From a virus (lineage: Duplodnaviria > Heunggongvirae > Uroviricota > Caudoviricetes): a stretch of 64,000 nucleotides of DNA. Both the position numbers and the translations under genes were made by a program. The notes under the pieces were generated by a model. The model searched no databases, was not told the DNA's origin, and saw only the letters and a list, made by a program, of their open reading frames with translations. The number at the start of each line of letters is the position of its first letter. Position 1 is the stretch's first letter. Positions 6,705-63,639 of this stretch are shown one piece after another. Location of the stretch: the IMG/VR virus record IMGVR_UViG_3300027744_000008, one strand, 5' to 3'.

Positions 6705-6721
6705 TTTATCTCCTGTTTATA

Positions 6722-7243: not shown

Positions 7244-7249
7244 CGTAGT

Positions 7250-8980: not shown

Positions 8981-9035
8981 AGAGTATTTAATATAGTTTA
9001 TTTCGATGCTAAAAGAAAGTGACTTAAATACATAC

Positions 9036-35965: not shown

Positions 35966-35972
35966 TAGAAAA

Positions 35973-44900: not shown

Positions 44901-47102
44901 TCAGCTGCTATTGCTCTGAGTAACTTAGACGGTCTAGGATTTAAACGTGGTGTCACAGTCAGTGAATTCTCGACTGATAACACCTTTACTAATAATTCAT
45001 CCGACACTGTGCCTGTTCAAAGTGCCATTAGAGGATACATTGATCGTAGACTAGGTCTAACACATGCTGGCGGCTTTGTATCAAGTGTTAATCGTAGAGG
45101 TCCAGGTTACATGGCGCTAAATGGTGTACTGGCCATGAGCGGCAGTATGAACCTTGGCGGCAACAGTGTTCAAAATGTGGCCAACAGTGTTTTTAGAGTA
45201 AGCTCGGGAACTGACGCAGCCAACGTAGCCTATGTTGACGGTCGTGTTGGATCTTTTGAAACATTTAACCAAATGAGGGATGTTAAGTTTAGTTCGCTGG
45301 CCTCTGGGGATATTCCAGTTTACGATAATGATAACAGTGTTAGTCTTGCTGTCACAAGCAGCATCACCGGAACAGGTATAATTGGCACAGCAACATTTAG
45401 TGTTGCTCAAGTAAGTGCTCCGTTTGCTGTTGAATCATCTATAACAATTTCTGGAGTAACTGGTACAACAGCCTGGAATAATACTTGGGTTGTTATAACT
45501 TGTGATACTACCACAGTAACATTTGCTGCATCTGTTTCAGGTATAGGTGACGGTGGAACAATCAAACAACAGAGATGGAGAAATGTACCGCAACCTACAG
45601 GTGATGTTAATGTTACCTATGACTATGTAACTAAAACTTTAACTTCTACAATTCAAAGTGGAGTGATTGTTAATGCCGATGTTAATGCAAGTGCAGCCAT
45701 TGACCAAACTAAATTATCATTAGATAACGCTGTGGTCACTACTGCTGCAAGTATTGCAGTGACTGGTGCTGTCAGAGTCGGAACTGTTGCTACCTTAACA
45801 TTTGCAACACAAACTGTTGCTCCGTTTGCTGCCGGTGCAAGAATTGTAGTCAGCGGATTTAGTACAACTGCATACAACGGCACTGTTACTGTGTTAGGTG
45901 CACCTAATGCGCCAACAGTAACTACTGTATCATACACCATTGACGTTGCTGCTGTAACACCGGCTGTGTTGGGATCAGGTGCCGTGAAGGCATTAGGTGG
46001 TATTGCAAGTTTTAGCAGTAACAACTTTAGTGTAACCAATGGATTTTTAAGTTTCAAATCAGGTGGTATTTCTTACGCTAACATCCAAGACGTTACAGCC
46101 AACCGTATGCTGGGTAACTTAACTGCTAGTGCTGCTTCAATGTCTGAAGTTACTCCAGAAGCAATCCTTAAGAGATCATACTTTGATCTAGCAACTACCC
46201 AATCTGCAACTACTAGCACTGAATATGTGTATTCATTCACACTTGGTGCCAGCGAAGCTGCAAGTAGCTTTACCAAACTCGAAGCAAGTACAAGCGGTGC
46301 TGATAGCAGTCTTGTAAAAACTTCAGCAAGTGGTGTAATAGATGTCAAAGGACTATACATCGCCGGTGATGAAATTATTGCAGTTGTTGGTGATGTACTA
46401 ACCGTGACAACACCTGGCGGTTGGGATTTTATGAGCATCAGCGGAACTACCTCAGCCAGTGTGTTAACTGTGCCTGTTACCATTGATAACAGCGGCGGCA
46501 TTATGGTCACTACTGATTTAAGAGCAGACGCAGCTGGCAATGGCGCTACTGCTGCTAATCTTATCGGTACTTGGCAAGTTGGTGGCACTAGTAGCATTGA
46601 TCTTGCCAGCAACAATGGTACACTACTGACTAGAACACTAAACACCGGGGATGCTGCAACGACTGGTTCAGTCGAAGGTACTTGGACATTAACTATTGGT
46701 AGTCAATGGGAATCAACATTTGGTGCTGACTTAGCTGAATACTATCTAACCGATGCTGAGTACGAGCCAGGAACGGTGCTGGTATTTGGTGGTTCCGCAG
46801 AAGTTACTACTACTAGTATAGAAGCTGATGCCACAGTAGCAGGCGTAGTTTCAACCAAGGCACAACTTACAATGAATGGTAAGATAAAAAATCAAGGAGC
46901 AGTGTTAATGGCTCTAGTGGGTCGTGTGCCAGTTAAGGTAATAGGTCCAGTTAATAGAGGTGAGATGTTGACCACTAGTACAACTCCAGGGTATGCTTGT
47001 AGGGCTGCTAGTCCCACAATAGGTACTATCATAGGTAAGGCCATGGAAGCAAAGACTACTCCAGGTACGGGCATAATTGAAGTAGCAATAGGAAGACTAT
47101 AA
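35973..47102 (+). CDS. giant (~3709 aa) virion structural protein / long tail fibre with C-terminal intramolecular-chaperone-like domain
   Basis: N-terminal NDGTGDSIRESFRKVNENF baseplate-anchor motif; Thr/Gly/Ser-rich beta repeats; C-terminal GADLAEYY...EPGTVL...ALVGRVPVKV...GIIEVAI. Start set at the ATG at 35973. Confidence 0.8.
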   Translation: MTKQTVNIGVQGNDGTGDSIRESFRKVNENFTEIYAAFGLEGKIQFKKLGDVDPSLSIAGTFGSESILISNTAGNLLTAKSLNAGYGISIDIDNTAKTVTIRSNQSKLINDTYPTLGAPLNAATNTIGNLADPDETAVANFNTTHSQYGWTTTLAKLAVNRGYVDDNFIKLVDGRIVGPLRVRDEPIAPEADDADYDSTLSGNYLKSEAIQRQDAVYRGGDVMLGALTLADHPGSLAGIGKPKGDDDLQAATKFYVDNATMYSQVNLFVSTNGDDVQTLSPLGKEGRAWNYAYKTIGAAALAAENFMNLSNTEPGPYKQRIGYTTGVADQDLTFSKVTGYDYIGGNVGDADYVDAYTLLVQNKEFIQTEVVAYINNKYVNSIDFDATVFSQAIADIVSAAADDLVLDTNYRSAAKAASLVGINLTDQLTTTIDGIDYALSIIQGYQYNEINRKAKIAQTLDAIGWDILFASNYQSVRMGQSYFYAPGQTTTSGEFEQTVGALDFIRDTLVALPSLVGQSTAIVRMSDSIDVIKNILSNGALQAASLEMPVSGDSLSGSASVRDLLLGNISFIQAEVIGYLAVEYSSLSYNKTTYKRNIKLMIEAVVYDIVYGGNSASRYAGQQYYNGATGILQANEIVPFKDAIDYIALIAKDIVQNDTPATVYQQSFRQYTNISLTGGAARTTDIDNKFAVITTIINDGVTQGAVTLVNPTVTSASPTLLDAQTAIDDDSGDIQDLTITYINDTFAVINDNAAQSSIQTSFGIVTTTLTSGLAALPAITYTSPVNLAAGFTHARVLLSNNIEFIQEEIAGWITATNIDFYIANTAVDLKRELKYIVEALMFDITYGGNSAIVAATDQYIANESSQFSTNDLEIIIDAFDYANELSKKIIKNQQPDSHYAQVTAGSFEIGTTYTIIDLGSTTNGQWNTAAGTSTTVYSVGSTFVAAAVGTGTGTVSYQYKNASLSQGASAETKVNTLWSDLAGKVGDTAAISTTGPTYAGQEFDTSFLDARTLLLTQKSIIGVNAVTYLETTYAGGFQYAETTCFRDLGYLVQAAAFDILFDSNYQSINAGKSYYRNASAKAVAIGTQYEETLDAINYAKTVALAVLNQENIEIYQDAVNQYFNVALAPSETAIATISSNWTIVTDIIQYGLGASSASSPNLGSGLVEIKFDNGGNGFVDQGYPLNNELIAGKLLLGASSFANATVISYTPGSETGVNETDTIIARLNLPIDFIEADGGEELEFAESVKDLQITIFVESGIYYEDYPIRLAENVSIKGNDFRRTIIRPRDRVSQSVWARIFFYRDAVMDGMQIGYLDEDTDYATSVSATISDVLGTITITLTSGVVPGEWVGRVFKSGVGKAQIDSVANNYMNCTVIYPFAAAGEIISGSWSVYGPKNYGRHYLTDPFDITSTPKNNRDIDVFLCNNATRVNNLSGQGHGGFMMVLDPEGQILSKSPYGQVCSSFSGSINKQRWAGGQFVDGFAGRLKGQITALDDLQVASGSLLDGYLNVTITGYKNSGLDVRAPKTPCSFFWRGIRYQVNNILDYNSTTYTLQVELDKNTPYLVSTPVTTTETGNGGGGTLITLTYPVQVGSPYVKGSSVQLTGYSPIEYNSYFVVDSSSPTQTTLVKFAVGQAIRVVGTLLGDATGISAGTYYIIATNGSSTFTLSASNSGAALTTSGTTVTGLTFSLNIAGTFDTINSVAVTGVGGQFSCTTEIPTAGITIHGSINGTGYNPINIEMGGNRSMLANDFAMINDLGYAIVAGNAGLTEQVSTFTYYCYTHYWSFNGGQIRSVAGSNAHGVYGLRASGYDVTELPDQVVTAQNLVQVMKIYKKRLTVNSMESGDLEVYVSNYEYAPQNVSELEIDHTSSGGTITRYEVKTVSESGYTTDPTFNQPVYGVPVKTGTGPYYVTYTVPLQTQIAAAGSFVIGVTYTIVSVGTTVFTTVGAAPGDGVGDTFVATGTGTTATTGGTASYVRAPGIGVFYKISGNSNEEYNSNILCTASTTTSITLEYQTDPGTVGVTGFALLTIANYSPNVARATFALQASAPYNIGDTIYISGVSTEAWNNSYLVTDCGTTYVQFSSGVATTVPTSGYVTSTLLTGQKVLSLNFSTSGNDNTSTAGLAYTLFHEQTVSVRALQYIKFTGIANVNPTRPSTALQFNEKLSEIYRVISYGLTDSTGNQLVDGTAVLTTDTSFNYIKVYTDSANTVESDPNDTYEAVITATIDDGAGSAGTTMTVSARTSGIIRIGQIISGPVISIGDAVTFSGLLSGTGSIVGYTNPSTYYVASTNGSTTFVLSDTYQHALDNTDFITTTPGTIIAATSIVVTTTGGNVTLSNVETTGSSGEFECDNINTVAAGSIVLAQISGTSGDVGTYTVSISQLVSPAITISCGPKTLGSSIGDTKIAISPITDQTIADQLSKGIYITTLGGRVHRVTGYTITTGTVITLTGASGTGSICTLTFAEQAVAPFIVGDVIEVAYARPTAYNGTFVVTDCTTTSISFPGTATGILSLPISAILYGSGRPAYINIDPTPVKETAGNYDEGFAITSIALKTGAGPYYVKYNIPSQDWPIEVDTYFKISGNASTGYNGSHNVTAGVSLSTVSVSGDGTTVTITYAPQSSAPFAVDSIVTLSGVVNSAYNKSYTILTCNATTLTAASTVTGAASVQGILSQQSDSTVNTVTVAYVDDPGTWIDPQSITITSFASKSAGLGTTENVVFNIPYQAVITATIDDGAGLAGTIMTVSAVSSGVLAPGQTIGGAGVTADTTIVNQLTGTTGSTGTYTVSISQLLTPAVLDNVNANTIPTVGTSVYYTIYGNSNVDYNGLVNATTATINTITFNYPSDPGIYGGGTTKIISGSSVMRRPHTGIDKPLSADTSYTMRIGYPKNIGGQVTVKISTTRATGHDFLDIGTGGYNTTNYPNQIFGSPTISKTGIVGEVKEDGVGRVFHVSTDQDGIFRVGRFFTVDQGTGTVTFSAAIALSNLDGLGFKRGVTVSEFSTDNTFTNNSSDTVPVQSAIRGYIDRRLGLTHAGGFVSSVNRRGPGYMALNGVLAMSGSMNLGGNSVQNVANSVFRVSSGTDAANVAYVDGRVGSFETFNQMRDVKFSSLASGDIPVYDNDNSVSLAVTSSITGTGIIGTATFSVAQVSAPFAVESSITISGVTGTTAWNNTWVVITCDTTTVTFAASVSGIGDGGTIKQQRWRNVPQPTGDVNVTYDYVTKTLTSTIQSGVIVNADVNASAAIDQTKLSLDNAVVTTAASIAVTGAVRVGTVATLTFATQTVAPFAAGARIVVSGFSTTAYNGTVTVLGAPNAPTVTTVSYTIDVAAVTPAVLGSGAVKALGGIASFSSNNFSVTNGFLSFKSGGISYANIQDVTANRMLGNLTASAASMSEVTPEAILKRSYFDLATTQSATTSTEYVYSFTLGASEAASSFTKLEASTSGADSSLVKTSASGVIDVKGLYIAGDEIIAVVGDVLTVTTPGGWDFMSISGTTSASVLTVPVTIDNSGGIMVTTDLRADAAGNGATAANLIGTWQVGGTSSIDLASNNGTLLTRTLNTGDAATTGSVEGTWTLTIGSQWESTFGADLAEYYLTDAEYEPGTVLVFGGSAEVTTTSIEADATVAGVVSTKAQLTMNGKIKNQGAVLMALVGRVPVKVIGPVNRGEMLTTSTTPGYACRAASPTIGTIIGKAMEAKTTPGTGIIEVAIGRL
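42651..44213 (+). repeat. near-identical 48-bp intragenic direct repeat (42651-42698 / 44166-44213)
   Basis: attgatgacggtgctggc(ag/ct)tgctggtacta(c/t)tatgacagtctcagcc, 45/48 identical; encodes IDDGAGxAGTxMTVSA. Confidence 0.85.
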
Positions 47103-47410
47103 TGACACAAAAACAAATAAACATTGGTAGCAGTCCCAACAAAGGCGACGGTGATCCGTTACGTACAGCATTTGGTAAAATTAACGATAACTTCGACGAA
47201 CTATATTTACTCACTGGGGTAGTTAGTTTAACGGAGCTGGCACAAGACTATGCGGCAGAAATGTTAGTAAACGGAGTACATGCTGGTGTGAGTGTAGCAT
47301 ATAATGATACCAATAATACGTTAAATATTACAGTAGAACAAGATATCGATGGAGGTGCTTCCTCCACGTTTTTCGACGACGACTTAACCATAAACGGGGG
47401 CGGAGCATAA
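47102..47410 (+). CDS. short baseplate/fibre-anchor protein
   Basis: INIGSSPNKGDGDPLRTAFGKINDNFDELY N-terminal motif shared with 35973 and 56108. Confidence 0.7.
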   Translation: MTQKQINIGSSPNKGDGDPLRTAFGKINDNFDELYLLTGVVSLTELAQDYAAEMLVNGVHAGVSVAYNDTNNTLNITVEQDIDGGASSTFFDDDLTINGGGA

Positions 47411-47411
47411 C

Positions 47412-48419
47412 ATGGCACGTAGAATACAACTAAGACGCGACACAGCGGCAAACTGGGCTAGCACAAATCCAGCGCTGGCGCAGGGTGAAATAGGTATAGA
47501 CTTAACCAGTAGTAAGATTAAAATAGGTAACGGTACTACATTATGGAATGCACTTGCCTATTGGGATGACGCAGACATTAATATTCCAAATGGTCGTGCG
47601 AATGTAACCGGTACTGCTAATACGGTTGGCGGTGGTGCAACGGTCGGAGTACGTAGTATATTAGCAATTGACTCAGCATTTGGTAGCAATGACGTAAATG
47701 CTCCAGCAAGCGCACAAGCAATACGTGGTCGTGTTACAGGTAGCAATCTAACTAAAACACGTAATTATGTAGCCGGTGTAACCGGTCAATACTTAGTTAC
47801 TGGTACCAATGCAAGCGAATTTATTAACACTGGTTTACTTGGTGTCGTAGGAGACCAAACAACTACAGCAAATGCGGCTGTTGTTGCTTACTTAGACGGT
47901 GACGGTGGATTGACTACCGCTGGTTCAGCATATGGTGTCAGTATGAAAAACTCAACTCCTGGATCAGGATTTGATTACGGTCTTGATTTACAATTTATTG
48001 ATTTAAATGTAGCCGGAACAACTGCCCCATTCAAGCAAGCAGATATTCGTTTTAATAACGGAGCCTTACAAAGAGACACTGGCACAGTTTCATGTCCAGG
48101 CAACGCCAGTACTGTGGTTTACACAGCGTCAGGTCAAGGTCAACACACTATAAGATTATTGATACAGGTCGAAGGTAGCGAAGGTGCGCCAGAGGGATGG
48201 GACACACAAGCATGTGAAATGATCATAGCCAAAAGTTTTAGAACCGATGACGTAGCCGCAACAGTGTATGCTGTTGTACATACTAGTGCGGCACCATTGG
48301 CAACATTTACCGCACAGTGGAACGCACTGACCAGCAGAGTAGAAGTACTGTGCGCCACGCCCAGTGCCAACTCAGTATACGTTAGAACATTCGCAACAGA
48401 AATTACAACAGCAGATTAA
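47412..48419 (+). CDS. tail fibre/spike with Mtd_N (hyaluronidase N-terminal)-like domain
   Basis: RIQLRRDTAANWASTNPALAQGEIGIDL...KIKIGNGTTLWNAL.Y. Confidence 0.8.
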   Translation: MARRIQLRRDTAANWASTNPALAQGEIGIDLTSSKIKIGNGTTLWNALAYWDDADINIPNGRANVTGTANTVGGGATVGVRSILAIDSAFGSNDVNAPASAQAIRGRVTGSNLTKTRNYVAGVTGQYLVTGTNASEFINTGLLGVVGDQTTTANAAVVAYLDGDGGLTTAGSAYGVSMKNSTPGSGFDYGLDLQFIDLNVAGTTAPFKQADIRFNNGALQRDTGTVSCPGNASTVVYTASGQGQHTIRLLIQVEGSEGAPEGWDTQACEMIIAKSFRTDDVAATVYAVVHTSAAPLATFTAQWNALTSRVEVLCATPSANSVYVRTFATEITTAD

Positions 48420-48432
48420 GGAATAATATAAC

Positions 48433-51400
48433 ATGGCAAATAAACCTTTCGCAATACAAGGCTCCGACCTAACACTAGGCGGCGTTAACATACAAGCAGG
48501 TACTGACAGTATTGTTATTCCTGGCATTACACAAGTAACCAACTATGTCGTAGAAGAAGTTAATGAGAATGGCAGCAACCTCAGTCAAGACCTTGGCGAT
48601 AATGCTGGTGCTATTACTGTGATTGACAATGCTGAATACCTATATCTTGTCGATGACGGCGACTCTCCGAGTGCTGATTATGTTGCAGCCACTTACAGTG
48701 TTGATGAACTAGACGATGGCAATATTGAAGAGATCACAGTTGACACAGCGGGCGTGTTTTTGGCTGCTGACAAAAACCGTGTTGAAGCAGCCAACATGTG
48801 GGCTACCACAACGCCTACACCATTTGTGTCATTTAGCGCAGGCAACTGGACACAGATTCCTTTCCGTCCTAAGATGCGAGCAGGTGAGATTGAGAATGTT
48901 GGTGGTAATGCTGACACTGGAAACTTCTCATTCGACGAAGACACTATCACAAATAGCAATGGAATGACGCTGGTTACTGATAGAGGATCATTGGCCATGG
49001 GTACCAACATGGAAGTGCCAGGTGTAGCGGGACACTTCCACATTGCCTTTGACGGTAGTAACAGTAATCCGCCCGCTAGTGACCTGTTCCTAGGTGACGA
49101 CAACAACTATGTTAAATTACCTGGATATGAACTCAACCCCGCCACATATGGTGTGGAGATTGGCACAGACAATAGAAACTTTGGGCCACAGAATATTGAA
49201 GTTGGTACGGTAGATGAACTTGTGCCACCAGGTGGCGTTTGGCGGTTGTTTATTGATCACGAAGATTATCCCAACTTGGGAGCTTCTGTCAGCGTAGGTG
49301 ACACAGTGACCACCTCATGGGGAACACCCATAACTGCTACAATCACAGACGTTGTTGAAGAACCTGGTAATTGGTGGAAAATTCATGTTGCTCAAGATAT
49401 TACCGCTGGATTCAGTGGTGGTGACACAGTTTCATTTGGTACATCGGGCGGCAGTCATACTTGGCGATTTGGCACAGATGGCACACTGACATTGCCACAA
49501 GGTGGCACTATTAGTGAAACGGAAGTCAACAGCAGCCACAGTATTTTATTAACACCAAGTGCTCCTTCATACGCCAATCCAGATATGGCGGTGAAAATAT
49601 ATCCAACATTCAACGACGACGATCATATACACATCACCGCGGGAGATCCTACCACAGTTGATCTATATCTAGGTGATGATGACCAGTATGTTAAGATTGA
49701 GAAAAACGGTGGTGACGTTGTCATTGGTACTAACACAAATACCAATCATTGGACATTTGATACCAGTGGTGCGTTGACACTACCTCAAGGTGGTGTTATT
49801 GATGAAACGCCCGCTGTCGAAACACTTACTCTTGTTGGTGCTAACCTAGCCGTGGTAAATCAAACCTACACCAAAACTAGCCTCACACTTTATACAGGTA
49901 GTGATGGTGTAACTATTGAAGAAATCAGTCCTGGGATTTGGTTTATTATTCAAGGTGGTGATACAAAATACTCATCAGCTGATGACCTAATTACTTGGAG
50001 TGATAGCACAGGTGGACTACCTGTGCCTACTGGCACAATTAACACACTACCTGAAACTGTTAATATCACAGTTGGCACCGAAACATGGACATTTGGCACA
50101 GATGGTAGTTTAACATTACCAGAAGGTGGTGACATTGTTGACAGCTCAGGCACTACAGTGTTGGGTGGTAATGGATCACTCACATCCACCAGCAGTATTG
50201 CTGTTCAAACTGGCGATACAGATCGTTGGTTAGTGCGACTGCGTAGAGAAGGCAGTGAGCAGGACCCCAGTGGCGGTGACGGTGTCGCAGTCTACAGCAC
50301 CAACTACGACAGCGAGGGCAATGCCATTGTGGTTGCTCGAATTTATCTCAGCGATGGTGGTGATGGTGATGGCATAGTGGTTGCCAAGTTCACATCAGCA
50401 GGTGTGTTGGTGTGGAAGAAAAGCATAGGTGACGTTGACGATAGCTTCTATCCAGAAAGCAATGCTGTGATTGACAGCAGTGACAACATCCTGCTGGCAG
50501 TGAATCCAGATAGCTCACAAGCCAAAATCATTGTCAAAATCAACGGTGATACCGGCGCTGTGGTATTCAGTGAAGAATTAGCATTGACCAGCTCGTTCAA
50601 TATCCGAGCCATGGCAGTTGACGGCAGCAACAACATCATCATTGGTGGTGACTTTGATTTATCTGGCAACACCACAGCGTTCGTGGCCAAGCTGACACCC
50701 ACTGCCAACACAATCACTTGGCAAAAGAGCCTAACTAATTTTAGCGATTCTTATGGCGATCGACAATCAACCATTTTCTCAGTGGCGGTGGATTTCAACA
50801 ACGACATCATTGCGGTGGGCTCAGCTGATCGTAGCATCACCGGAGTCCCAGGCTTGACCGAAACAATGTCAGTGGTCAAGATCACTTCAGCAGGTGGATC
50901 AAGTTGGGGAAAGTCAGTGCTGCTTGAGGGCGATACACCGTTTGGTGAAGCTTGGAATCTAAGTCTTGACAGTGTGGGCAACATCTATGTTGCTGGAACT
51001 TACTATGTTGACAACGCAGAAGCAACAGGAAATCCAGGGTATTCAGGCCTGAAAAGCAATGCTGTGGTCCTATTCAAGATGACCACTTTGGGTGTGATAT
51101 CTTGGGATCGCAGAGTTGGACCTGGCCAGTGTGATTGGGTTGGTGTCAGCACCGCAGTGGGTGACGATGGCGACTTATACCTGTTGGCCAGCACTTATCA
51201 ACTGAACCCAGCAGGTGGCGCGGACGAGACATTGGGAATTTGGAATTCTACTCTGGCTCTGGCCCGATACAACAAGACCACAGGTGCTGTGATCTGGCAA
51301 AGTTATTTTGACAATCCTCAGGCTCAAGAAATGGCAGGTAGTTCTAATGATGGACCTTGGGGCGATACCAGCACAGACCTAATGGCAGTGCGGGGTGACA

Positions 51401-54378
51401 AGATACTGATTGGTGGCGTGGTTAAACTTGGAGCAAGTGAAGCAGACATGTTCGGTTCTGCTGACAATGATTATTTTAGTCAAGGATTCGTAGCACAGTT
51501 TGACACTGCGGCCACACAGTGGTCAGCAGAAGGTTGGACACTGTCAACAAGTCGTATTCCCGGCAAGTTGATGAACACCCTGGTCACCGCAAGCGGTTAT
51601 TGGCAGTTTCGAACTGACATTGCCATGACTGCCGAAGGTTCCCTAATGCTGTCCACAGTGGCAGTGGGCATCAGCGTGAGACGCAACACCAGCAAGGTCA
51701 ACACTTGGACATTTGGCAAGGACGGCACATTCACAGCACCAGTGGATGCTGACATTCGCCTACAACAACAGCAGTTGGGCTCGGCCACAATGTATGGCGT
51801 GTTTAATAACGATCAAGATGATATTTGGTTTGAAACTGTGTGCCACGACGCAGAAGGATTTGCCTATGCTGTGGGCAGTAATGATTGGTCTTTCAACCGT
51901 GCTTACATTTACAAGTTCACACCAGAAGGTTCAGCAGTGTGGCAAAGAGAACTACGCAGTGGAACTGGCGCCCAGTTCACTGTGGTGGTCACATCAGGTG
52001 TCTACGCTACGCCCACAGTGACCACCGGTGGTGAAGGCTATAAAGTAGGTGATAGGATCCTTATTGACGGTGACAGTCTCGGAGGCGATCCCAGTAATAC
52101 ACTGACTTTAGAAGTGGCCACCATTACCGATGCTGAAGACTATGTTGGTGAAGTAGCCACAGTCACCATTGCGAGCGGTGTGGGAGCGGTGGGAGTTACC
52201 AATACATATACCACTGTTCAAGACCCTGATGACAACGCACAGTGTGAAGTGCGTTCAATGACCTACAATCCAGTCACTGGCAACATTGAGGTTATCATCA
52301 CAACAACAACACAGTTAGGTGATCCTGACGCTTGGAGTCTTGACAGCAACTGGTCAGAAACTGTGATCGTGACCATTGACTCAGGATCAGGCACAGTGGT
52401 CAGCACACGCACACTACAAGATGAGGGTGATGTCTATGCCTATGATGCAGCAGTCAGTTCAACTGGTAAGATTGCTGTGGTTGGTGAAAAGTTCAACGAA
52501 TATGAGGAATACGGCGCCATTACTCCGTTAGTGGGCAGTGGTGTAGATAAACTATGGGTTGCTAAATCAGACATTGATGCTGAACATTTCCCAGGTGAAA
52601 TTATTCCAGGTGGCGGCAGTATCACTGACTGGTGGATTACCGGCACTGGTATCACTGATCAGATTCGAGTTCAAAATATAAACCTATACACAGGATTGGC
52701 AACCACTACCAACAGCGTGGCCGGCAGCGGTGCTACTATCACAGTGGAATTTGACCCCACAACTGGGGCGTATGAAAGTCACAGCTTTGAGTTTGGGGGA
52801 TCTGATTATGAAGTAGGCGACACCATCACCATCAGTGGACTGCTGTTGTCCGGGGGAACATCACCTGCCAACGACATAGTTTTCACAGTTGTCACAGTGA
52901 ATTCCGGCATTCTGGTATCTATCACCCATGCCAGTGGTGCTCATCCCTCAACACATCTACTGATAAACACCAACGCCACAGTGAACTATGCCGCAGGTGG
53001 AGCCACATTTGAGATCAAGCAGAACTTGGGTGGAGAAGCATTTGTTTGGACTCCGGACTTTACCAAGGCCATTGGCGGCGCAAGTGGTGACCGTTTCACT
53101 GGTGTGGCGTGGAACACCGCTGGCACAAGTCTATATGCTGTGGGTCAAGGACACTATGAAGTAGACTATAATCAAGCCCTGGTGGTGAAATTCTCCAGCG
53201 CAGGTGTAATCACAGCCAGCAAGTTTGTCAACGATGATATGGGTGACACCAGTGCCTCCCGTGGAGCAGTGGCACTAATGGCCAATGATTCAATAGTTGT
53301 GGTTCACCAACAGTATAACGTAGGGAGAGATGAAAGTGACGAAGTCTTGGTCACCAAGTTGGACAGCAGCCTAAATATCATATGGCAACAGTTTATTGGC
53401 GTAGACAGCGATGATGGTTGGGCCAGTCCATCCAGTAACATCAGTGTAGCAGTTGATCCTGCTACAGATGAGATTGTGATTGCGTGGGAAGCCTACGATG
53501 ACTACGAGTTCTTTGATGACAGTGCCATAGTGATTGTGAAGTTGGACACTGATGGTGAAGTTGTTTGGAAGCGTTGGTGGGGTGTTGGCGAAAGCGACAC
53601 TCGGTTGAACTATGAAGAGTATGGCAACCGGGCCCTGAGCATACATGGTGATCAGTTTACTTTGGTGGGCCACACTGATGCGGTGGATGATGACTATGAC
53701 AATGGGTTCATAGTGACTCTGCCATTAGACGGCACAGGTCTGGGAGAGCACGGCATTTGGAAGTATGTGGAACCCAACGATGACCGAATCAAAGTTTGGC
53801 GTCTGAGTGGTAGAACAGCAACAGTATTCACTGCCACTGAGCACACTGGCAGTATCACTGCTGAGTCCAACATTAAACATTACTACACTGACTATCCTCT
53901 CGAAGAATTCACATTCTATCCTGAGACCATACTGAGTAATCAAGGTGGTGCTGTAGAGTTCGCTGATGGCAGTCGTCAGACATTCAGCACAGCCATTGTG
54001 CCACAGGTAAAGATCAGTGCTGGTTGGTATACACTACGAGCAGAAGATAGTGGCAGACATATTCTTATTGAAACCAGCAACTACAGTGTAGTTATTCCCA
54101 ACTGGCAACGAGTCTCACTACCAGTGGGATATACAGTGACCGTGATCAACATCAGCGGTAGCGATGCTTACGTGTCAAATGAATCAAGCGACAACCTTCA
54201 AGGTCAAATGTGGTTCTCAGGTGGTGATGACAAAACTCCTGATATCGGAATCCGTGATAACGGATCAGGACAGATGATTACACTGATCAAGATCAAAGAA
54301 GGCACACGTTCAGACGACGGTGAAATGCATGGTGACATCTGGATGGTGGCTGGTGCTGACATTTACAACAACGATTAA
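48433..54378 (+). CDS. large acidic modular virion protein (1981 aa) with beta-propeller repeats
   Basis: Four TW(T/R)FGxDGxLTLP-type linkers (49459, 49747, 50083, 51703). Repeated (A/S)VDxxxNIxxxG / VAKxxxxGxxxWxK propeller blades. Confidence 0.72.
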   Translation: MANKPFAIQGSDLTLGGVNIQAGTDSIVIPGITQVTNYVVEEVNENGSNLSQDLGDNAGAITVIDNAEYLYLVDDGDSPSADYVAATYSVDELDDGNIEEITVDTAGVFLAADKNRVEAANMWATTTPTPFVSFSAGNWTQIPFRPKMRAGEIENVGGNADTGNFSFDEDTITNSNGMTLVTDRGSLAMGTNMEVPGVAGHFHIAFDGSNSNPPASDLFLGDDNNYVKLPGYELNPATYGVEIGTDNRNFGPQNIEVGTVDELVPPGGVWRLFIDHEDYPNLGASVSVGDTVTTSWGTPITATITDVVEEPGNWWKIHVAQDITAGFSGGDTVSFGTSGGSHTWRFGTDGTLTLPQGGTISETEVNSSHSILLTPSAPSYANPDMAVKIYPTFNDDDHIHITAGDPTTVDLYLGDDDQYVKIEKNGGDVVIGTNTNTNHWTFDTSGALTLPQGGVIDETPAVETLTLVGANLAVVNQTYTKTSLTLYTGSDGVTIEEISPGIWFIIQGGDTKYSSADDLITWSDSTGGLPVPTGTINTLPETVNITVGTETWTFGTDGSLTLPEGGDIVDSSGTTVLGGNGSLTSTSSIAVQTGDTDRWLVRLRREGSEQDPSGGDGVAVYSTNYDSEGNAIVVARIYLSDGGDGDGIVVAKFTSAGVLVWKKSIGDVDDSFYPESNAVIDSSDNILLAVNPDSSQAKIIVKINGDTGAVVFSEELALTSSFNIRAMAVDGSNNIIIGGDFDLSGNTTAFVAKLTPTANTITWQKSLTNFSDSYGDRQSTIFSVAVDFNNDIIAVGSADRSITGVPGLTETMSVVKITSAGGSSWGKSVLLEGDTPFGEAWNLSLDSVGNIYVAGTYYVDNAEATGNPGYSGLKSNAVVLFKMTTLGVISWDRRVGPGQCDWVGVSTAVGDDGDLYLLASTYQLNPAGGADETLGIWNSTLALARYNKTTGAVIWQSYFDNPQAQEMAGSSNDGPWGDTSTDLMAVRGDKILIGGVVKLGASEADMFGSADNDYFSQGFVAQFDTAATQWSAEGWTLSTSRIPGKLMNTLVTASGYWQFRTDIAMTAEGSLMLSTVAVGISVRRNTSKVNTWTFGKDGTFTAPVDADIRLQQQQLGSATMYGVFNNDQDDIWFETVCHDAEGFAYAVGSNDWSFNRAYIYKFTPEGSAVWQRELRSGTGAQFTVVVTSGVYATPTVTTGGEGYKVGDRILIDGDSLGGDPSNTLTLEVATITDAEDYVGEVATVTIASGVGAVGVTNTYTTVQDPDDNAQCEVRSMTYNPVTGNIEVIITTTTQLGDPDAWSLDSNWSETVIVTIDSGSGTVVSTRTLQDEGDVYAYDAAVSSTGKIAVVGEKFNEYEEYGAITPLVGSGVDKLWVAKSDIDAEHFPGEIIPGGGSITDWWITGTGITDQIRVQNINLYTGLATTTNSVAGSGATITVEFDPTTGAYESHSFEFGGSDYEVGDTITISGLLLSGGTSPANDIVFTVVTVNSGILVSITHASGAHPSTHLLINTNATVNYAAGGATFEIKQNLGGEAFVWTPDFTKAIGGASGDRFTGVAWNTAGTSLYAVGQGHYEVDYNQALVVKFSSAGVITASKFVNDDMGDTSASRGAVALMANDSIVVVHQQYNVGRDESDEVLVTKLDSSLNIIWQQFIGVDSDDGWASPSSNISVAVDPATDEIVIAWEAYDDYEFFDDSAIVIVKLDTDGEVVWKRWWGVGESDTRLNYEEYGNRALSIHGDQFTLVGHTDAVDDDYDNGFIVTLPLDGTGLGEHGIWKYVEPNDDRIKVWRLSGRTATVFTATEHTGSITAESNIKHYYTDYPLEEFTFYPETILSNQGGAVEFADGSRQTFSTAIVPQVKISAGWYTLRAEDSGRHILIETSNYSVVIPNWQRVSLPVGYTVTVINISGSDAYVSNESSDNLQGQMWFSGGDDKTPDIGIRDNGSGQMITLIKIKEGTRSDDGEMHGDIWMVAGADIYNND

Positions 54379-56795: not shown

Positions 56796-58670
56796 ATGGC
56801 TTTAAAATTAAGACGAGGACTTGAAGCAGATCGTGATGGTATATTACCTGCAGAAGGTGAGTTAATTTACACAACAGATCAAAAGCAACTGTTTGTAGGT
56901 GATGGGGAAACTGCTGGCGGTACTCTTGTTTCGTCTGCTGTGGTTAGTGTTAACGGAAATAACGGTGTAGTAACTTTAACAACTGATGATGTTGATGAAG
57001 GTACTACTAATAAGTATTTTACAAACACTCAAGCAAGAAACGCTATTAGTGTAACAGGTGCGGGTGGCACATACAATCCGACTACTGGTGTTATTGACCT
57101 AACCGGTGGTGGTACAAGTAGTGATTCCTTCAAAACTATTACAGTAGCAGGGCAAAGCAATGTTGTAGCCGATAGCGCCACTGACACACTAACACTGGTA
57201 GCTGGTACAAATATTACTATTACAACCAACGATACTACTGATACTGTCACTATCAACTCTACTGCCAGTAGCAGTGTAGAAAATCTTGACGATCTATTAG
57301 ATGTTGATGCAGTAGCTCCGAGTAATGGACAAGCATTGGTTTGGAATTCAGGTACTACTAAATGGGAAGCAGGTACTGTAGGGTCCGGCACTGTCAGTAC
57401 TGGAATTATTAATCAAATTCCATACTATACCAACACGAATACTCTAAGTGGAAGTACTAAATTCACAGTAGACCCTAGCACAGGTGATCTTTTAATCAAT
57501 GAAGGCGGATTGTTCGGGGTCTATGCAGTGTTACAAGCTGATTCAAATTTTCCCCCTCCGTTAATAATGAGTCAATACCATAGTGGCGGAGAAACGCCAT
57601 CTATTGCCATGCAGAGAGCGAGGGGCACTCGAAGCGCCCCTGCGGTTCTTCAAATTTATGATAATCTTGGAAAAATTTATTCTCTGGCCCATGATGATGT
57701 AAAATTTGTTAACAGTTCTGCTATAGAAACTTATATAACCGGGGCTATTACCAACGGTGTAGCAGACTTAGAAGCTACATTAGCCACAGGAACTGCAATC
57801 GTCACGCTTACTGTAGGAGATACTACAGGGTTAGTAGCAGGTCAATATATAACTAAGCAAAGCGGTGTGGGAACATTTGGTACTAGTTGGGACGGAGTTC
57901 CACCATACATTGCATCAGTTGATAGCCTAACACAGTTAACATTAAGTGTAAATCATTCCGTGGCCGGTGCTGTAGTGTTTGAGGTTGACGGTATTATTCC
58001 TACTACCATGGCATTTAGCAATACAACATCAGACGGTAAAAAACGTCGTCTATTAAAATTAGAAAATAATGGTTCTGTGACAGTGGGTCCAAGTGTTGCA
58101 GACTTTAACGGCGCTGACTTCACTGGTATATTTACTATTCTATCAATGAAAAGTGCAGATGTTGCAGTAAGTTCACTTTATTCATTATCAAACAGTGCAT
58201 TTAAAATTGGTGGGATCTTTGACGGTGTACGGGGACAAGAGATAGCGTTTTCAAGAGTTAGAGGTACTGTTGAAGAAGGCGGTAGTGTTGCCACACCTAC
58301 CACAATACTAACAGGTGACGAACTTGGAGCATTGGCCTTTTACGGCTATAATACCGGGACTCCGGGTATTGATAATTTACTGAGCAGCCGTATTGTATCA
58401 GAAGTAAGTGGTACCGTAACAAGCACTGCCCTGCCTGGCCAATTAACGTTACAAACTGCAAACAATAGTGGTACATTGACCAACGGTCTAACAGTGGACA
58501 GATACCAAATGACCACATTTGGCGGCATGGCTAAAGTGGCAACTTATGCTGACGAAGCAGCCGCTGCCGCTGCGATAGGCGGCACGCCAACTAACGGCAT
58601 GATGTACTATGACACTGGAGCAAACTGCGCTAAGATGTACGGAAATGGTGCTTGGAACCTATTGTGGTAA
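56796..58670 (+). CDS. tail fibre protein with Mtd_N-like N-terminus
   Basis: ALKLRRGLEADR...PAEGELIYTTDQKQLFVGDGETAGG; two RARGT/SRVRGT...GDxLG repeats. Confidence 0.75.
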   Translation: MALKLRRGLEADRDGILPAEGELIYTTDQKQLFVGDGETAGGTLVSSAVVSVNGNNGVVTLTTDDVDEGTTNKYFTNTQARNAISVTGAGGTYNPTTGVIDLTGGGTSSDSFKTITVAGQSNVVADSATDTLTLVAGTNITITTNDTTDTVTINSTASSSVENLDDLLDVDAVAPSNGQALVWNSGTTKWEAGTVGSGTVSTGIINQIPYYTNTNTLSGSTKFTVDPSTGDLLINEGGLFGVYAVLQADSNFPPPLIMSQYHSGGETPSIAMQRARGTRSAPAVLQIYDNLGKIYSLAHDDVKFVNSSAIETYITGAITNGVADLEATLATGTAIVTLTVGDTTGLVAGQYITKQSGVGTFGTSWDGVPPYIASVDSLTQLTLSVNHSVAGAVVFEVDGIIPTTMAFSNTTSDGKKRRLLKLENNGSVTVGPSVADFNGADFTGIFTILSMKSADVAVSSLYSLSNSAFKIGGIFDGVRGQEIAFSRVRGTVEEGGSVATPTTILTGDELGALAFYGYNTGTPGIDNLLSSRIVSEVSGTVTSTALPGQLTLQTANNSGTLTNGLTVDRYQMTTFGGMAKVATYADEAAAAAAIGGTPTNGMMYYDTGANCAKMYGNGAWNLLW

Positions 58671-58689
58671 TTTAATGTAAGGATTTCAA

Positions 58690-61359
58690 ATGGCCTTAGA
58701 GATATGGCAGGAGCGTTCTGGCTATTCGTTTGGCACATTTCAAGAACGCATTCCTTTAGAATTAAATCTGCCAGTGTCTCCGGACGCTGGCGTGGAAACG
58801 TTCATCGGTAGTCGACTGATAGTCGATTTAGGAACGTTCGGTAATCCACGATATTCTAATATTGATCTTGGTACAGAGTTTTCTGAATCAGAATATGCCT
58901 ACGAATTTGCGGCCGCAGACAAACCTATCTTTATTCCGCCAGATGGCGTTACCTATGAGTTAATTGCTGGATCATTACCCCCAGGCATGCGATTATCGGG
59001 TGCAAAGATTGTAGGGACACCATTCGAAGTTCCGAGACCTACTACATTTACATTTTGTATTAGAGCAACAAGTATAGACGGTATTGCTGATAGGACTCTT
59101 AATTTAACCATTGAAGGTGCAGACCTACCTAGTTTCCAAACTGCTGCCGGAGATCTACCACTTGGTCCAAACAATGCCTACTATGTTTTAGATTCTTCTT
59201 TTGTAGATTTTCGACTTGATTCTGTAGATTTTGATACTGCTGCCGGGCAACGTCTACATTTCTTTATTGCCAATGACGACGGAGATCTTCCTCCTGGCCT
59301 AACCCTTGATGGTGACGGAAGAATAACCGGATTAGTTGAGCCTGCCACTATTATTAAGAAAAGCGACGGCGACGGATCCTACGATAGTGGACCTTATGAT
59401 GCTGTAGTCTATGACTTTGGCAGCAGACCAAGTGACGGTTATGACAGCTATGTGTATGATATTGTAACCTACGATTATAATATACCTACAAATACACCTA
59501 CTAGAGTTAATAGAAATTATGAATTCATAGTCTCATTAAGCGATGGAGATACTGTAAGACAAAGAAAATTTAAAATATTTGTTGTAGCCGATGATTATTT
59601 TAGAGCCGATAACGTACTACTTCCGGCGAGTGCAGGAATATTTAAAGCTGATGGTACATTCTTAAGAAACCCAATTTGGAAGACTGATGCCTATATAGGA
59701 CAATACAGAGCCAATAACTATCTAACATTAATGTTAGATATTTACTCAACTATAGATACTGGTCTAGTAAGTTATGGTATCGAGGCCACTAATTTTTATG
59801 ATGCCGACTTGTCCTATCAAATAGATGACAAAGTATTGTTTAACGACAAAACTTACATCTGTATTAAAAATAACTCTTTATCTGTAGATACGCCAGACCT
59901 CGACTCTGAACATTGGATACAGTCTAGGGTGCCGCCTGGTTTATCATTTGATATATCAAATGGTGAGTTATTTGGTGTTGTACCTTATCAGCCTGCTGTT
60001 ACTAAACAATATGTCTTTAATGTTCTAGCAACACGTTATTCAAATACACTAGAAACGTCATACTCAAGTAGAACATTTACTATAGATTTAATTGGTGAAA
60101 TTGATAGCACCATTTATTGGCTAACTGATAGCAATCTAGGTGATCTTGCTGCTAACTACACTTCTAACTTAAAAGTAGAAGCCAGTACTAGTGTCGTCGG
60201 CGCAATTTTAGTTTACAGCATAGAAAGCGGAATACTTCCTCCAGGATTAACACTTTCCACAGATGGAGAGATAATTGGAAAAGTAAATCAATATTCAACT
60301 GTTGACAAACTTGGTCTAACTAGATTTTATGACGAGGTTGGATTTGAGTTTATCTATACTACATTTGATCAAGATACCACAACTGTAGATAGATCGTACA
60401 CATTTACAATTAAAGCAAAAGATCAATATAATTACAGTGCAATTACAAAAGAGTTTCATGTTACAATCACAACTCCAAATAATAAACTTTATAGTAACTT
60501 AACAGTAAGGCCATTTATGCCCCTTGCACAACGAACAGTGTTTAAATCATTTATAACAAATAATATAGTGTTCACGGCCGGTAGTATCTATAGACCCAAT
60601 GATCCAGAATTTGGTATACAAACACAATTAAAAATGTTGGCCTACGCCGGTATTGAAACTAGAGAGGCAGCAGTGTATGTCAGTGCCATTGGTCTAAATC
60701 ATAAAAAGAAACAGTTTAAGTTTGGTGAAGTTAAAAAAGCTGTAGCAAAAAAACCTGGTACAAATACTGTTCTTTACGAAGTAATATATATAGAAATGTC
60801 TGATCCATTAGAACCTAATGGGTTACGACTGAATAACAAACTAATAGATAAAAGTAAAGATCAAAATAAAATAACTATTGATGCCACAAATGATTTCTGG
60901 AGTCTTAATCTAGATACGCTGGAAGAAGATAATTTTTTTAATGGGCGCAGACCTATTCCGTCTATCAGCATAGATCAAACAAATATTCAAGTAAGTAATC
61001 CAAATACTAGAGCTATATTTCCATCTAGCATTTCTAATTGGCAGGATCGAATTAAAAATTGGACAGACGACGACGGAGTAGGCTTATCGACAGAACGTAA
61101 TTATTTGCCATTATGGATGAGATCAATACAACCAGAAAGTAAACAAGAACTCGGATTTATTTTAGCTATTCCAATCTGTTTCTGTCTTCCTGATAAATCA
61201 ACTGATATTTTAGTTAATATTAAAAACTATATTAAAACTACAGGATTTAGTTTTAACAAATTAGATTATACTGTAGATAGATACATAATAGATTCAGTAG
61301 CTGACAACGACGGGGATAAATACCTAGTATTTAAAAATGACAGGAATACTATAACGTGA
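58690..61359 (+). CDS. putative baseplate wedge protein with putative-Ig (He_PIG-like) repeats
   Basis: Four LPPG/VPPG...G.I.G.P/V...F.I.A repeats; located in the structural module. Confidence 0.65.
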   Translation: MALEIWQERSGYSFGTFQERIPLELNLPVSPDAGVETFIGSRLIVDLGTFGNPRYSNIDLGTEFSESEYAYEFAAADKPIFIPPDGVTYELIAGSLPPGMRLSGAKIVGTPFEVPRPTTFTFCIRATSIDGIADRTLNLTIEGADLPSFQTAAGDLPLGPNNAYYVLDSSFVDFRLDSVDFDTAAGQRLHFFIANDDGDLPPGLTLDGDGRITGLVEPATIIKKSDGDGSYDSGPYDAVVYDFGSRPSDGYDSYVYDIVTYDYNIPTNTPTRVNRNYEFIVSLSDGDTVRQRKFKIFVVADDYFRADNVLLPASAGIFKADGTFLRNPIWKTDAYIGQYRANNYLTLMLDIYSTIDTGLVSYGIEATNFYDADLSYQIDDKVLFNDKTYICIKNNSLSVDTPDLDSEHWIQSRVPPGLSFDISNGELFGVVPYQPAVTKQYVFNVLATRYSNTLETSYSSRTFTIDLIGEIDSTIYWLTDSNLGDLAANYTSNLKVEASTSVVGAILVYSIESGILPPGLTLSTDGEIIGKVNQYSTVDKLGLTRFYDEVGFEFIYTTFDQDTTTVDRSYTFTIKAKDQYNYSAITKEFHVTITTPNNKLYSNLTVRPFMPLAQRTVFKSFITNNIVFTAGSIYRPNDPEFGIQTQLKMLAYAGIETREAAVYVSAIGLNHKKKQFKFGEVKKAVAKKPGTNTVLYEVIYIEMSDPLEPNGLRLNNKLIDKSKDQNKITIDATNDFWSLNLDTLEEDNFFNGRRPIPSISIDQTNIQVSNPNTRAIFPSSISNWQDRIKNWTDDDGVGLSTERNYLPLWMRSIQPESKQELGFILAIPICFCLPDKSTDILVNIKNYIKTTGFSFNKLDYTVDRYIIDSVADNDGDKYLVFKNDRNTIT

Positions 61360-62153
61360 CCAGCTCAATTAACACAGATAATATTGATCCAGAATTTCCA
61401 GTTGCTGGACAGGATAACAACAGCCAAGGATTTAGGGATAACTTTCTTTACATAAAAGAAGGACTAGAATCTGCTGCTGCCGACATTACAAATTTGCAGG
61501 TTAACGGTGCAAGGCTTGATGATGATAATAATTTTCAAAGTAATTTAATCACTAACGCAACCACTGTTGAAGTGTACGGATTAGTTTATTCTGCTAGTGA
61601 AGGAAGTCCAGCTGGCGATGCAGATATTAATTTGTTAGTTGGATCTCTACAGTTCCTATACGTTAATAGCGAAAACTTAACTATAACATTTAGAGATTGG
61701 CCAGATACTGATCGATATGCATCTGTTAGGGTTCATATGATCGGTGATTCAACATCAACTAAAACAGTAACTTTAGAAACAGAAAATTCTGGATTAATAA
61801 AGTTTGCTAAAGGTCTTACTAACGGATTAACATTAATATACGATGTTAGTAAAACTGTTGTAGGAACATATTCATCAGGATCACCGCAAATAGTAGTAGA
61901 CAATGTTTCAGATCTAGAAATTGGGTTTAATGTAACTGCACAGCCTGGTATAATTTCAGCTGGGACAACCATTGAAGCTATTGATTCTACTACCAATGTT
62001 GTTACATTTAATAATGCTCTTGTAGGCGCATTAATCAATGATGCTACTATAGAATTTACTAGTGCTGTAATTAAATCTAAAGTAATTGAGGCGTGGACTT
62101 ATGACGGTGGTGTCACAGTCTATATCAATTATGTAGGAGAATTCGAACTATGA
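61356..62153 (+). CDS. structural protein (baseplate/tail associated, hypothetical)
   Basis: IDPEFPVAGQDNNSQGFRDNF N-terminus with coiled coil; GTGA overlap with the upstream gene. Confidence 0.65.
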   Translation: MTSSINTDNIDPEFPVAGQDNNSQGFRDNFLYIKEGLESAAADITNLQVNGARLDDDNNFQSNLITNATTVEVYGLVYSASEGSPAGDADINLLVGSLQFLYVNSENLTITFRDWPDTDRYASVRVHMIGDSTSTKTVTLETENSGLIKFAKGLTNGLTLIYDVSKTVVGTYSSGSPQIVVDNVSDLEIGFNVTAQPGIISAGTTIEAIDSTTNVVTFNNALVGALINDATIEFTSAVIKSKVIEAWTYDGGVTVYINYVGEFEL

Positions 62154-62383
62154 TGCATCCGTTGACTGAAGATTTTAATGAATTGAAAGATGTAGAAATT
62201 GAGTCTCGTATCCAAGATTTATCTAAAAAATATTTTATGAGTCAAAATCCGTCAATACAGAGACAGATTGGCATGTTTCTAGATATGTATAAAGCTGAAC
62301 TACATCATCGTCGTGCAGTTGCTTGGCAAAAAGACTATCAAAAACGTAATAAATCTCTTGACGACTTGATTAAAGTAAGTTAA
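62150..62383 (+). CDS. hypothetical protein
   Basis: ATGA overlap; helical 77 aa. Confidence 0.75.
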   Translation: MMHPLTEDFNELKDVEIESRIQDLSKKYFMSQNPSIQRQIGMFLDMYKAELHHRRAVAWQKDYQKRNKSLDDLIKVS

Positions 62384-62386
62384 AAT
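62358..62386 (+). promoter_or_regulatory. sigma70-type promoter (leaderless) for the DnaE-like fragment
   Basis: TTGACG (62358-63), 17 nt, TAAAAT (62381-86). Predicted +1 is the ATG at 62393. Confidence 0.75.
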
Positions 62387-62392
62387 AGCAGG

Positions 62393-62902
62393 ATGAACCC
62401 TGACAAATATAGTAATCCCGTTTTTACAGAAGAAGATATTTTTGAATTGTTGTATCAAGGACAATTCCAAAAGTTAGACCAATTGTTTGTAGAAGACTCA
62501 AAAGAAATTCAAAAACTAGAACTTGAATCTAATATTTCATTTAAAAAGCCCTCAAAAGATTTTTATAATTTAGATGTAGAAGATTTTGATCAAATTCTAC
62601 AATCAGATTGGTTTATGCCCGAAGAATATAAAACTTTTGACATTGAGGCTTATTGTATTGCTCAATGCGACTCTATTGAACAACAAACTAGAATATTTGA
62701 AGAATTTGAAGAATACAAAAAGCGTAATATGTTAAACCTATTGCGGTGGCTTAAATATTTTGTAGATACCTGCAGATCTAACAGTATTGTTTGGGGAGTA
62801 GGCAGAGGATCAAGCGTGGCCAGCTATGTGCTCTTTATTATTGGTGTTCATAAGATCAACAGCATTAGATATAATCTAGACTGGCATGAATTTTTAAGAT
62901 AA
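62393..62902 (+). CDS. stand-alone fragment of DNA polymerase III alpha (DnaE) palm region
   Basis: RIFEEFEEY...YFVDTCRSNSIVWGVGRGSSVASYVLFIIGVHKINSIRYNLDWHEFLR* aligns with the DnaE G.GRGS.A.S.V.Y.LGI..IDP..Y.L.FERFL segment. Confidence 0.75.
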   Translation: MNPDKYSNPVFTEEDIFELLYQGQFQKLDQLFVEDSKEIQKLELESNISFKKPSKDFYNLDVEDFDQILQSDWFMPEEYKTFDIEAYCIAQCDSIEQQTRIFEEFEEYKKRNMLNLLRWLKYFVDTCRSNSIVWGVGRGSSVASYVLFIIGVHKINSIRYNLDWHEFLR

Positions 62903-62926
62903 GTAATATATCGTAAGGAGAAAATT

Positions 62927-63187
62927 ATGGCAATGAAAGAACAACAAAGATCTGTATATAAAACAATGCAAGGTCGAGAAATCGACATGCACAAGTTAAG
63001 TATGCAACACGAGATGACCGTGGCAGTTGGCAATGCTAGGGTTAACGCTAGAGGTGACGAACTCGGCCCAGGCGGTAAAATTATTCGTAAACGAGAAGAT
63101 GTATTTGAAGAATTTTATCAAGGCCACGCAGACGCTGCACCAGACGAAGTAGTAATTAGAAAAAAATCACAAAGATCTAAGGAATAA
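62927..63187 (+). CDS. hypothetical protein
   Basis: AAGGAG SD; ATAAGTA motif upstream (62899-905). Confidence 0.8.
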   Translation: MAMKEQQRSVYKTMQGREIDMHKLSMQHEMTVAVGNARVNARGDELGPGGKIIRKREDVFEEFYQGHADAAPDEVVIRKKSQRSKE

Positions 63188-63188
63188 G

Positions 63189-63587
63189 ATGAATGTTGTT
63201 AAAGGTAAAATAATCCCGATTAATGATAATGTCCTAGTCAGTGACATGCATTTTGACGAAATCAAAACAGCAACAGGTATTATTATCCGCAGTGATGATG
63301 GCAAAAGTGAAGGTATCAAACCGCGTTGGGCAAAAGTTTGGGCAGTTGGACCAAACCAAACTGATGTTAAAGTTGGTGAATGGATACTAGTAGAACACGG
63401 GCGTTGGACCAGGGGGATTACCATTGAAGACCAAACCGGTAACGAAATTGTTATACGCAGAGTTGAAATAAAATCCATCATGATGTCCGCTGACGAAAAA
63501 CCAACTGATTTTTATCAAGGCAGCATGTCTAGTTCACAAAAAGAACATACATTTAAACCAGAGATGTTTGCTGGGCCTCAATTTTAA
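63189..63587 (+). CDS. groES: co-chaperonin GroES-like protein
   Basis: IIPINDNVLV...TATGIII...AKVWAVGP...VKVGEWILV...I..V....IM. Confidence 0.85.
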   Translation: MNVVKGKIIPINDNVLVSDMHFDEIKTATGIIIRSDDGKSEGIKPRWAKVWAVGPNQTDVKVGEWILVEHGRWTRGITIEDQTGNEIVIRRVEIKSIMMSADEKPTDFYQGSMSSSQKEHTFKPEMFAGPQF

Positions 63588-63603: not shown

Positions 63604-63630
63604 GGGGCTCTTGACGAGCCCTATTTTTTT
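63604..63630 (+). terminator. intrinsic terminator after groES
   Basis: GGGGCTC-TTGAC-GAGCCCT followed by A and a 7-T tract. Confidence 0.85.
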
Positions 63631-63639
63631 GTGTATAAT
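63611..63639 (+). promoter_or_regulatory. sigma70 promoter nested in the terminator (leaderless)
   Basis: TTGACG (63611-16), 17 nt, TATAAT (63634-39). Predicted +1 is the ATG at 63646. Confidence 0.78.

Follow-up and report, generated by a model that had tools for sequence, protein, structure and literature searches.

The window, by which we mean the whole stretch of 64,000 nucleotides analysed here, encodes a 169-aa ORF running from ATG to TAA at 62393-62902 (+). The best explanation of this gene as a whole, which we consider likely, is that its product is the N-terminal subunit of a minimal C-family (Pol III alpha-like) nucleotidyltransferase, made of two chains and free of inteins, of a group 2.2 jumbo phage. 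The parts of this explanation differ in strength. We are nearly certain that the ORF forms a split pair with a 193-aa ORF (P0338) of the same phage. It is quite probable that the two-chain enzyme is catalytically active; given activity, its anatomy and gene neighbourhood somewhat favour a role in short-patch DNA synthesis. Genes of this kind have been published, as the split minimal Pol III alpha of group 2.2 jumbo phages was described from sequence by Iyer et al. (2021, Viruses 13:63, PMC7824862). The window gene belongs to this split minimal Pol III alpha of GAP32/RaK2/PA5oct-like phages, whose defining stand-alone GRGS chain, distant C-chain gene and family B polymerase were found. New here are the split point, a predicted leaderless promoter in 46/46 freshwater relatives and an invariant Glu at the position of DnaE Arg390.

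The GRGS motif of DnaE is found at residues 137-140 of the ORF (62801-62812, +) and is the sole such motif in any long ORF of the window. Its R138, G139 and S140 correspond to R362, G363 and S364 of Escherichia coli DnaE and are invariant in 38/38 aligned sequences. Residues 96-168 match positions 22-94 of the 260 positions of the Pfam profile PF07733 (E 2e-9), and the ORF also matches positions 16-171 of PHROG 11127 (E 4e-39). Since this PHROG has 171 positions and is matched to the last of them, the short form is a protein family of its own. Homologs among cultured phages include those of PA5oct, Atu_ph07, SCTP-2, 121Q/PBECO4, CBB, RaK2-like phages and Xanthomonas jumbo phages. Single-sequence searches of the PDB gave no match, and profiles and folds were required. 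In the AlphaFold model of the chain (pLDDT 88), residues 61-169 superpose on residues 271-393 of E. coli DnaE (Z 10.2-11.5, rmsd about 3, about 100 residues aligned); the best structural match is 5lew (Z 12.8, rmsd 2.2, 97 aligned). The structural alignment starts at residue 61, and residues 1-60 (62393-62572, +), a small phage-specific alpha/beta segment that touches the partner in the co-fold, have no DnaE counterpart. These 60 residues matched no named fold or family, which does not establish a new fold. No Pfam match to PHP was obtained for the ORF; the sequence-only reading of this DNA had likewise described a 169-aa ORF with the GRGS segment of DnaE and no PHP domain.

According to the same reading, the gene stops a few residues before the catalytic motif of C-family polymerases, and the alignment bears this out. 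At the C-terminus, the alignment with E. coli DnaE extends to L392/N393, 8 residues before D401. The last residues, W164-H165-E166-F167-L168-R169, correspond residue for residue to F388-E389-R390-F391-L392-N393, so that the ORF ends six residues before the equivalent of the MPDxD motif (M399-P400-D401 in E. coli). The split point is the C-terminal E-F-L-R-stop (62888-62902, +), where E166 (38/38) takes the position of R390 and R169 (37/38) that of N393.

The sequence-only reading proposed as one possibility a naturally split, non-intein DnaE with the aspartate-bearing half encoded elsewhere, and suggested looking for an ORF that begins near PDIDxD. No PD(I/F/V/L)DxD motif occurs in the six frames of the 64-kb window, and a partner protein has no tblastn match there. 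An exact DNA scan of metagenome_contigs during the search for the partner was empty, and the partner was not found on 24 partial contigs with the N gene, which are fragments. Weak PF17657 matches led to partner genes in 121Q, CBB and Atu_ph07 and thus to the family PHROG 11778. About 85 IMG/VR loci were then found to encode the partner, which starts with its DxD motif at residues 2-6. The system is very widespread, as at least 7,436 protein clusters match the partner.

The partner of this phage was found by a walk from the window through overlapping contigs, in which direct overlaps are 98.6-100% identical and two links lie inside single contigs. It is the 193-aa P0338 (L559:14602-15183), about 160 kb downstream by the sum of the walk coordinates, and it matches PHROG 11778 with E 3e-66. 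The walk passes an RFC clamp loader and an 890-aa family B polymerase (PolB), then baseplate, portal and gp23 capsid genes, then terminase, SSB, RecA and a UvsW-like helicase before reaching P0338, with primase and DnaB close behind. The PolB gene lies 26 kb downstream of the window gene, on a contig that shares 2.66 kb of identical sequence with the window. The longest contigs that carry the exact window protein, the exact P0338 and the exact PolB all have a length of 320,469 bp, and P0338 is also present in samples 3300017780 and SRR5260432, which carry the exact N gene. The presence of both halves in one phage rests on this walk, which crosses strains of one population, together with the matching length of 320,469 bp.

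P0338 begins with MPDIDIDF and contains H35, K67, D69, R136-P137 and FKKSH at 165-169. Its D3, D5, K67 and D69 correspond to D401, D403, K553 and D555 of E. coli DnaE; hence all three catalytic aspartates are kept. The same four positions (D3, D5, K66 and D68 in the numbering of the PHROG 11778 reference row) are invariant in 51/51 aligned sequences. The partner model (pLDDT 93) aligns with deletions to DnaE residues 400-784 (Z 7-10); its comparison with 4jom gave Z 8.9, rmsd 4.0 and 184 aligned residues. The RefSeq call of the Atu_ph07 partner (58304-58798) starts 27 codons late and omits PDIDID; the open frame has 191 aa (NC_042013.1 58304-58879, equal to L090:1348-1923, minus strand). Within L559:13428-15550 the partner gene is flanked by conserved genes of no assigned function, belonging to PHROG 11758, PHROG 11058 and a convergent PHROG 11637. 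The PHROG 11058 neighbour has a weak zinc-finger match, and similar genes surround the partner in 121Q, CBB and Atu_ph07. The three flanking genes may encode further subunits. We also considered a DnaQ-like proofreader next to the C gene and rejected it: 121Q has a PF00929 protein at that place, and the gene of this phage there is unrelated.

Both halves occur in 5/5 tested IMG/VR genomes of at least 90% completeness and also in four large partial IMG/VR genomes. The counts of cultured phages with the N and the C half agree by genus, for example 34/34 for Escherichia, 11/11 for Pseudomonas and 8/8 for Salmonella. Trees of the two halves were too poorly resolved to pair them. PolB is present in all five related genomes tested. 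Searches for PHP (PF02811) in the five related complete genomes (>=90%) gave no match, while 14/14 controls were detected. As separate PHP pieces are absent from these five genomes, the enzyme is a minimal one and not a full DnaE encoded in parts. With this qualification, the split, non-intein arrangement proposed by the sequence-only reading is supported. Features of group 2.2 found here are Gp23, Portal_T4, DEAD/Helicase_C and RecA proteins, SSB, a clamp loader and a 320-kb contig (>200 kb). Divergent copies of both halves are encoded about 11 kb apart in Alishewanella phage Slicko01 (OQ508956.1), at L105:1489-1998 (-) and L104:5968-6579 (+). Since the Slicko01 genome is only 141 kb long, the split system also exists outside jumbo genomes. 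In Slicko01 the PolB matches are spread over two frames (578 and 322 aa), and in PA5oct over two separate frames (825 and 379 aa, NC_071039.1 217618-221395).

The halves are complementary and do not overlap in structural alignments: the N chain covers E. coli residues 271-393 and the C chain covers 400-784. Between the N chain, which reaches 393, and the C chain, which begins at 399, only the intervening residues 394-398 are encoded by neither gene. Distances between conserved positions are shorter in the phage partner than in E. coli: 30 vs 108 residues from D403 to H511, 34 vs 44 from H511 to D555, 67 vs 84 from D555 to R639, and 33 vs 121 from R639 to H760. Judging by the domain limits of the E. 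coli structure, we take the first of these gaps to contain the thumb and the last to contain most of the fingers. PHP, clamp-binding and OB parts are missing from both chains. The partner conserves the primer-side Lys (equivalent of K553) and the RP and FKKSH finger motifs.

Co-folding of the parts, as the sequence-only reading had advised, predicts that they fit together. The window chain was co-folded with Mg and the partner of a relative (66% identical to P0338); the score of 0.93, against 0.01 for the best control, indicates compatibility and not binding, because halves of split genes tend to pass by their likeness to solved DnaE. The mark used for such scores was reached by 58/80 solved complexes and by 2/110 mismatched pairs. 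Three runs agreed in 100% of contacts, and the pLDDT of the partner was 93. In the co-fold, residues 130-143 of the N chain are placed on partner residues 2-9, which hold two aspartates; the predicted packing places N-chain residues 134-135 on partner residues 6-8, beside the aspartates.

Residues R362, R390, R709 and R710 of E. coli DnaE contact dATP, and G363 and S364 form part of the pocket (PMC4374717). Equivalents of R362, G363 and S364 are kept in the phage N chain, and the GRGS loop (38/38) and the three catalytic aspartates (51/51) are all present across the two chains. The nucleotide contact of Arg390, a feature of active C-family polymerases, is not found, as Glu166 occupies this position in 38/38 sequences. 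Neither gene encodes R396, and nothing in the partner can be aligned with the R709/R710 segment. The lysines of the partner motif RPAK(R/K) were tried as copies of R709/R710 and rejected, as 422/500 shuffles scored as well. With Glu in place of R390, R396 unencoded and R709/R710 unalignable, activity would require a rewired triphosphate pocket. The lost arginines may be compensated for by the terminal R169 (37/38) and the invariant lysines of the partner.

The pair resembles the published split Pol III alpha of group 2.2 phages in having a stand-alone GRGS chain and, in one genome with it, both a distant gene for the Mg-binding C chain and a family B polymerase; an example is 121Q gp56 (PHROG 11127) with gp16 (PHROG 11778). 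It differs from the cultured members in belonging to an uncultured freshwater lineage, the N chain matching the PA5oct gene over its full length with 41% identity and that of 121Q with 34%. The halves lie about 160 kb apart here vs 31 kb in 121Q and 44 kb in PA5oct, and the N gene has a predicted leaderless promoter of sigma70 type, absent at this place from the cultured phages of enterobacteria and Pseudomonas. With bacterial DnaE (E. coli 2hnh and 4jom, Thermus aquaticus 3e0d, mycobacterial 5lew and 7pu7) the pair shares the palm fold, GRGS, three aspartates and the motifs K-x-D-x-L, RP and F-x-K-S-H in the same order, here distributed over two chains. Unlike DnaE, it has 362 aa in two chains instead of 1160 aa in one, no PHP, clamp-binding or OB parts, largely deleted thumb and fingers segments, Glu at the R390 position and no encoded R396. 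A canonical DnaE replicative alpha is therefore ruled out, as such a subunit unites PHP, complete thumb and fingers, HhH, clamp-binding and OB parts in one chain. Cyanobacterial intein-split DnaE (mentioned in PMC3919608) is likewise encoded by two genes, but there a split intein rejoins the halves into a full-length replicase. In the phage the break comes shortly before the first catalytic aspartate, and non-covalent association is required to join the chains. An intein-split DnaE was rejected: there is no intein Pfam match, and the alignment to DnaE takes in the N chain to residue 169 and the C chain from its first residue.

The N gene is preceded by a putative sigma70-type promoter, TTGACG-17-TAAAAT (62358-62386, +), 6 nt 5' of the ATG and within the last codons and stop of an upstream 77-aa ORF with no assigned function (62150-62383, +). 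The sequence-only reading regarded this site as a leaderless promoter. Taken alone, the site is at chance level (10 sites found vs 8.3 +/- 2.8 in shuffles). Comparison of relatives strengthens the claim: in 46/46 distinct freshwater relatives the site recurs 6-7 nt 5' of the ATG, always with no SD. Within the upstream ORF, the -35 box falls in Leu-Asp codons, which are CTT GAC in 44/45 relatives; the usage of these codons in the window is 0.22 for CTT and 0.33 for GAC, and synonymous sites are strongly diverged already among the closest relatives. In one relative whose upstream sequence differs, TTGACA-16-TATACT stands equally far from the ATG. Recurrence of the site in all 46 relatives, which are non-independent samples, together with the kept CTT GAC codons, makes a leaderless transcript of the N gene by the host polymerase likely. 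Such a site is absent at this position from cultured enterobacterial and Pseudomonas phages, and no sigma70-type promoter is found directly 5' of the partner gene.

The N gene is followed by a gene of PHROG 14844 with no assigned function (62927-63187, +), which has its own SD (AAGGAG, 62915-62920), and by a gene for a GroES-like co-chaperonin (63189-63587, +). The same order, with a small gene of no known function between the N gene and GroES, is conserved in PA5oct, 121Q, CBB and Atu_ph07 (4/4 neighbourhoods). Further downstream, another sigma70-type promoter (TTGACG-17-TATAAT, 63611-63639, 11 of 12) also lies 6 nt 5' of an ATG (63646) and overlaps a terminator-like hairpin (63604-63622). 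Given this second case, leaderless starts may be a habit of this phage.

The mechanism that we propose would be as follows. By sequence, the N chain supplies the first half of the palm (E. coli 271-393) with the GRGS loop, and the C chain supplies the catalytic aspartates, K67 and a shrunken finger piece ending in FKKSH. The two chains are predicted to fold non-covalently into one palm, and the dimer would bind Mg and dNTP and add nucleotides to the 3' end of a primer. With little thumb and no clamp-binding part, the enzyme should be distributive. The phage also encodes a full family B polymerase and an RFC-type clamp loader, and genes for SSB, RecA, a UvsW-like helicase, primase and DnaB form the neighbourhood of the partner gene. 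The most likely job of the dimer would be short-patch synthesis beside the family B replicase, that is, gap filling or extension of RecA/UvsY/UvsW recombination intermediates. We found no biochemical or genetic test of this enzyme in the literature.

An ORF that ends inside a domain could also be a pseudogene, an assembly error, or a gene rejoined by frameshift, intron or protein splicing; the position of the end is the sole point in favour of such readings, which are already largely refuted and in our estimate very improbable. Independent assemblies contain the identical gene: two IMG/VR contigs match the window with 100% identity over 4.8 and 2.7 kb, 18 JGI, ENA and Logan contigs encode the exact N protein, and a contig of a DNA run that is not flagged as a possible source crosses the whole gene with no difference, indel or joint. 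The stop is fixed in 80/80 IMG/VR loci of 49-100% identity, where the protein is 162-170 aa long and the distance from the first G of GRGS to its end is 33 residues. It is at the identical position in PA5oct and Atu_ph07 and one residue later in 121Q and CBB, thus within one codon in these four cultured phages. The dN/dS values against three close relatives (0.04-0.11) indicate purifying selection on the N gene. All three frames after the stop are closed or part of the next gene and are not conserved, which speaks against a frameshift or read-through product; the sequence-only reading had likewise seen no continuation in other frames. Both chains align to DnaE to their very ends, leaving no room for intein parts. 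A search for N+C fusions among proteins of 297-2000 aa gave one match of 360 aa (P0001, L109:10001-11083), whose extra part is unrelated to the partner. P0001 translates only with TGA=W and is thus a gene-calling join of an upstream gene with the N half; the lack of a natural fusion in this size range is weak evidence. The two circumstances named in advance as fatal to a split gene, an assembly error and a continuous dnaE at this place in relatives, were both looked at and not found. Contigs of three RNA runs, which carry no strand, start or level, cover the flanks; one covers 62539-62936 of the gene and two leave the gene uncovered.

If the gene is intact, its product could still be a catalytically dead decoy or inhibitor of the host replisome, alone or paired, which was the other proposal of the sequence-only reading. 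The N chain alone has no metal ligands, a phosphate-binding Arg is lost, and in the freshwater clade the gene has a host-sigma70-type, probably early promoter of a kind not seen directly before the partner gene. We nevertheless disfavour a dead module and regard it as improbable: all three aspartates are kept in 51/51 partner sequences, the partner and the N chain occur together, and the DnaE parts for binding the clamp and other replisome subunits are missing. Another reading, which we consider unlikely, accepts an active pair and gives up ordinary template-directed DNA synthesis. The pair would then be a repurposed pol-beta-fold nucleotidyltransferase derived from the C family, almost thumbless, with a rewired pocket and a new substrate or product, and its early leaderless N chain and replication-operon C chain would pair to switch it on. 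It might add a few untemplated nucleotides, use a modified or ribo-nucleotide substrate, or make a primer or a small nucleotide product. The deletion of most of the DNA-gripping thumb and fingers, with the aspartates yet invariant, fits this reading, as do the losses at R390, R396 and R709/R710, the novel 60-residue segment that joins the interface, and the complete PolB, which makes a second polymerase needless for bulk replication. Template-directed synthesis by the two-chain minimal polymerase is favoured instead by the conservation of the primer-binding Lys (K553 equivalent) and the RP and FKKSH motifs, by the location of the partner gene in a replication-recombination cluster, and by the best structural matches, all of which are DnaE or PolC.

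A cognate pair of 169 and 193 aa, its exact break point and a predicted interface are now available, which allows asking whether a 360-residue, nearly thumbless two-chain Pol III core makes DNA and why phages with PolB keep such an enzyme. If active, the pair would be a model for the minimal Pol III catalytic core and, to our knowledge, far smaller than any known C-family polymerase.

Elsewhere in the window, two regions (5179-10732 and 35937-54378) contain a cluster of genes related to fatty acids and very long ORFs, as judged by inspection of translations. The cluster includes acyl-carrier-, FabZ-, AcpS- and desaturase-like genes, and the very long ORFs, of 3721 and 1981 aa, probably encode tail-fibre or adhesin proteins.
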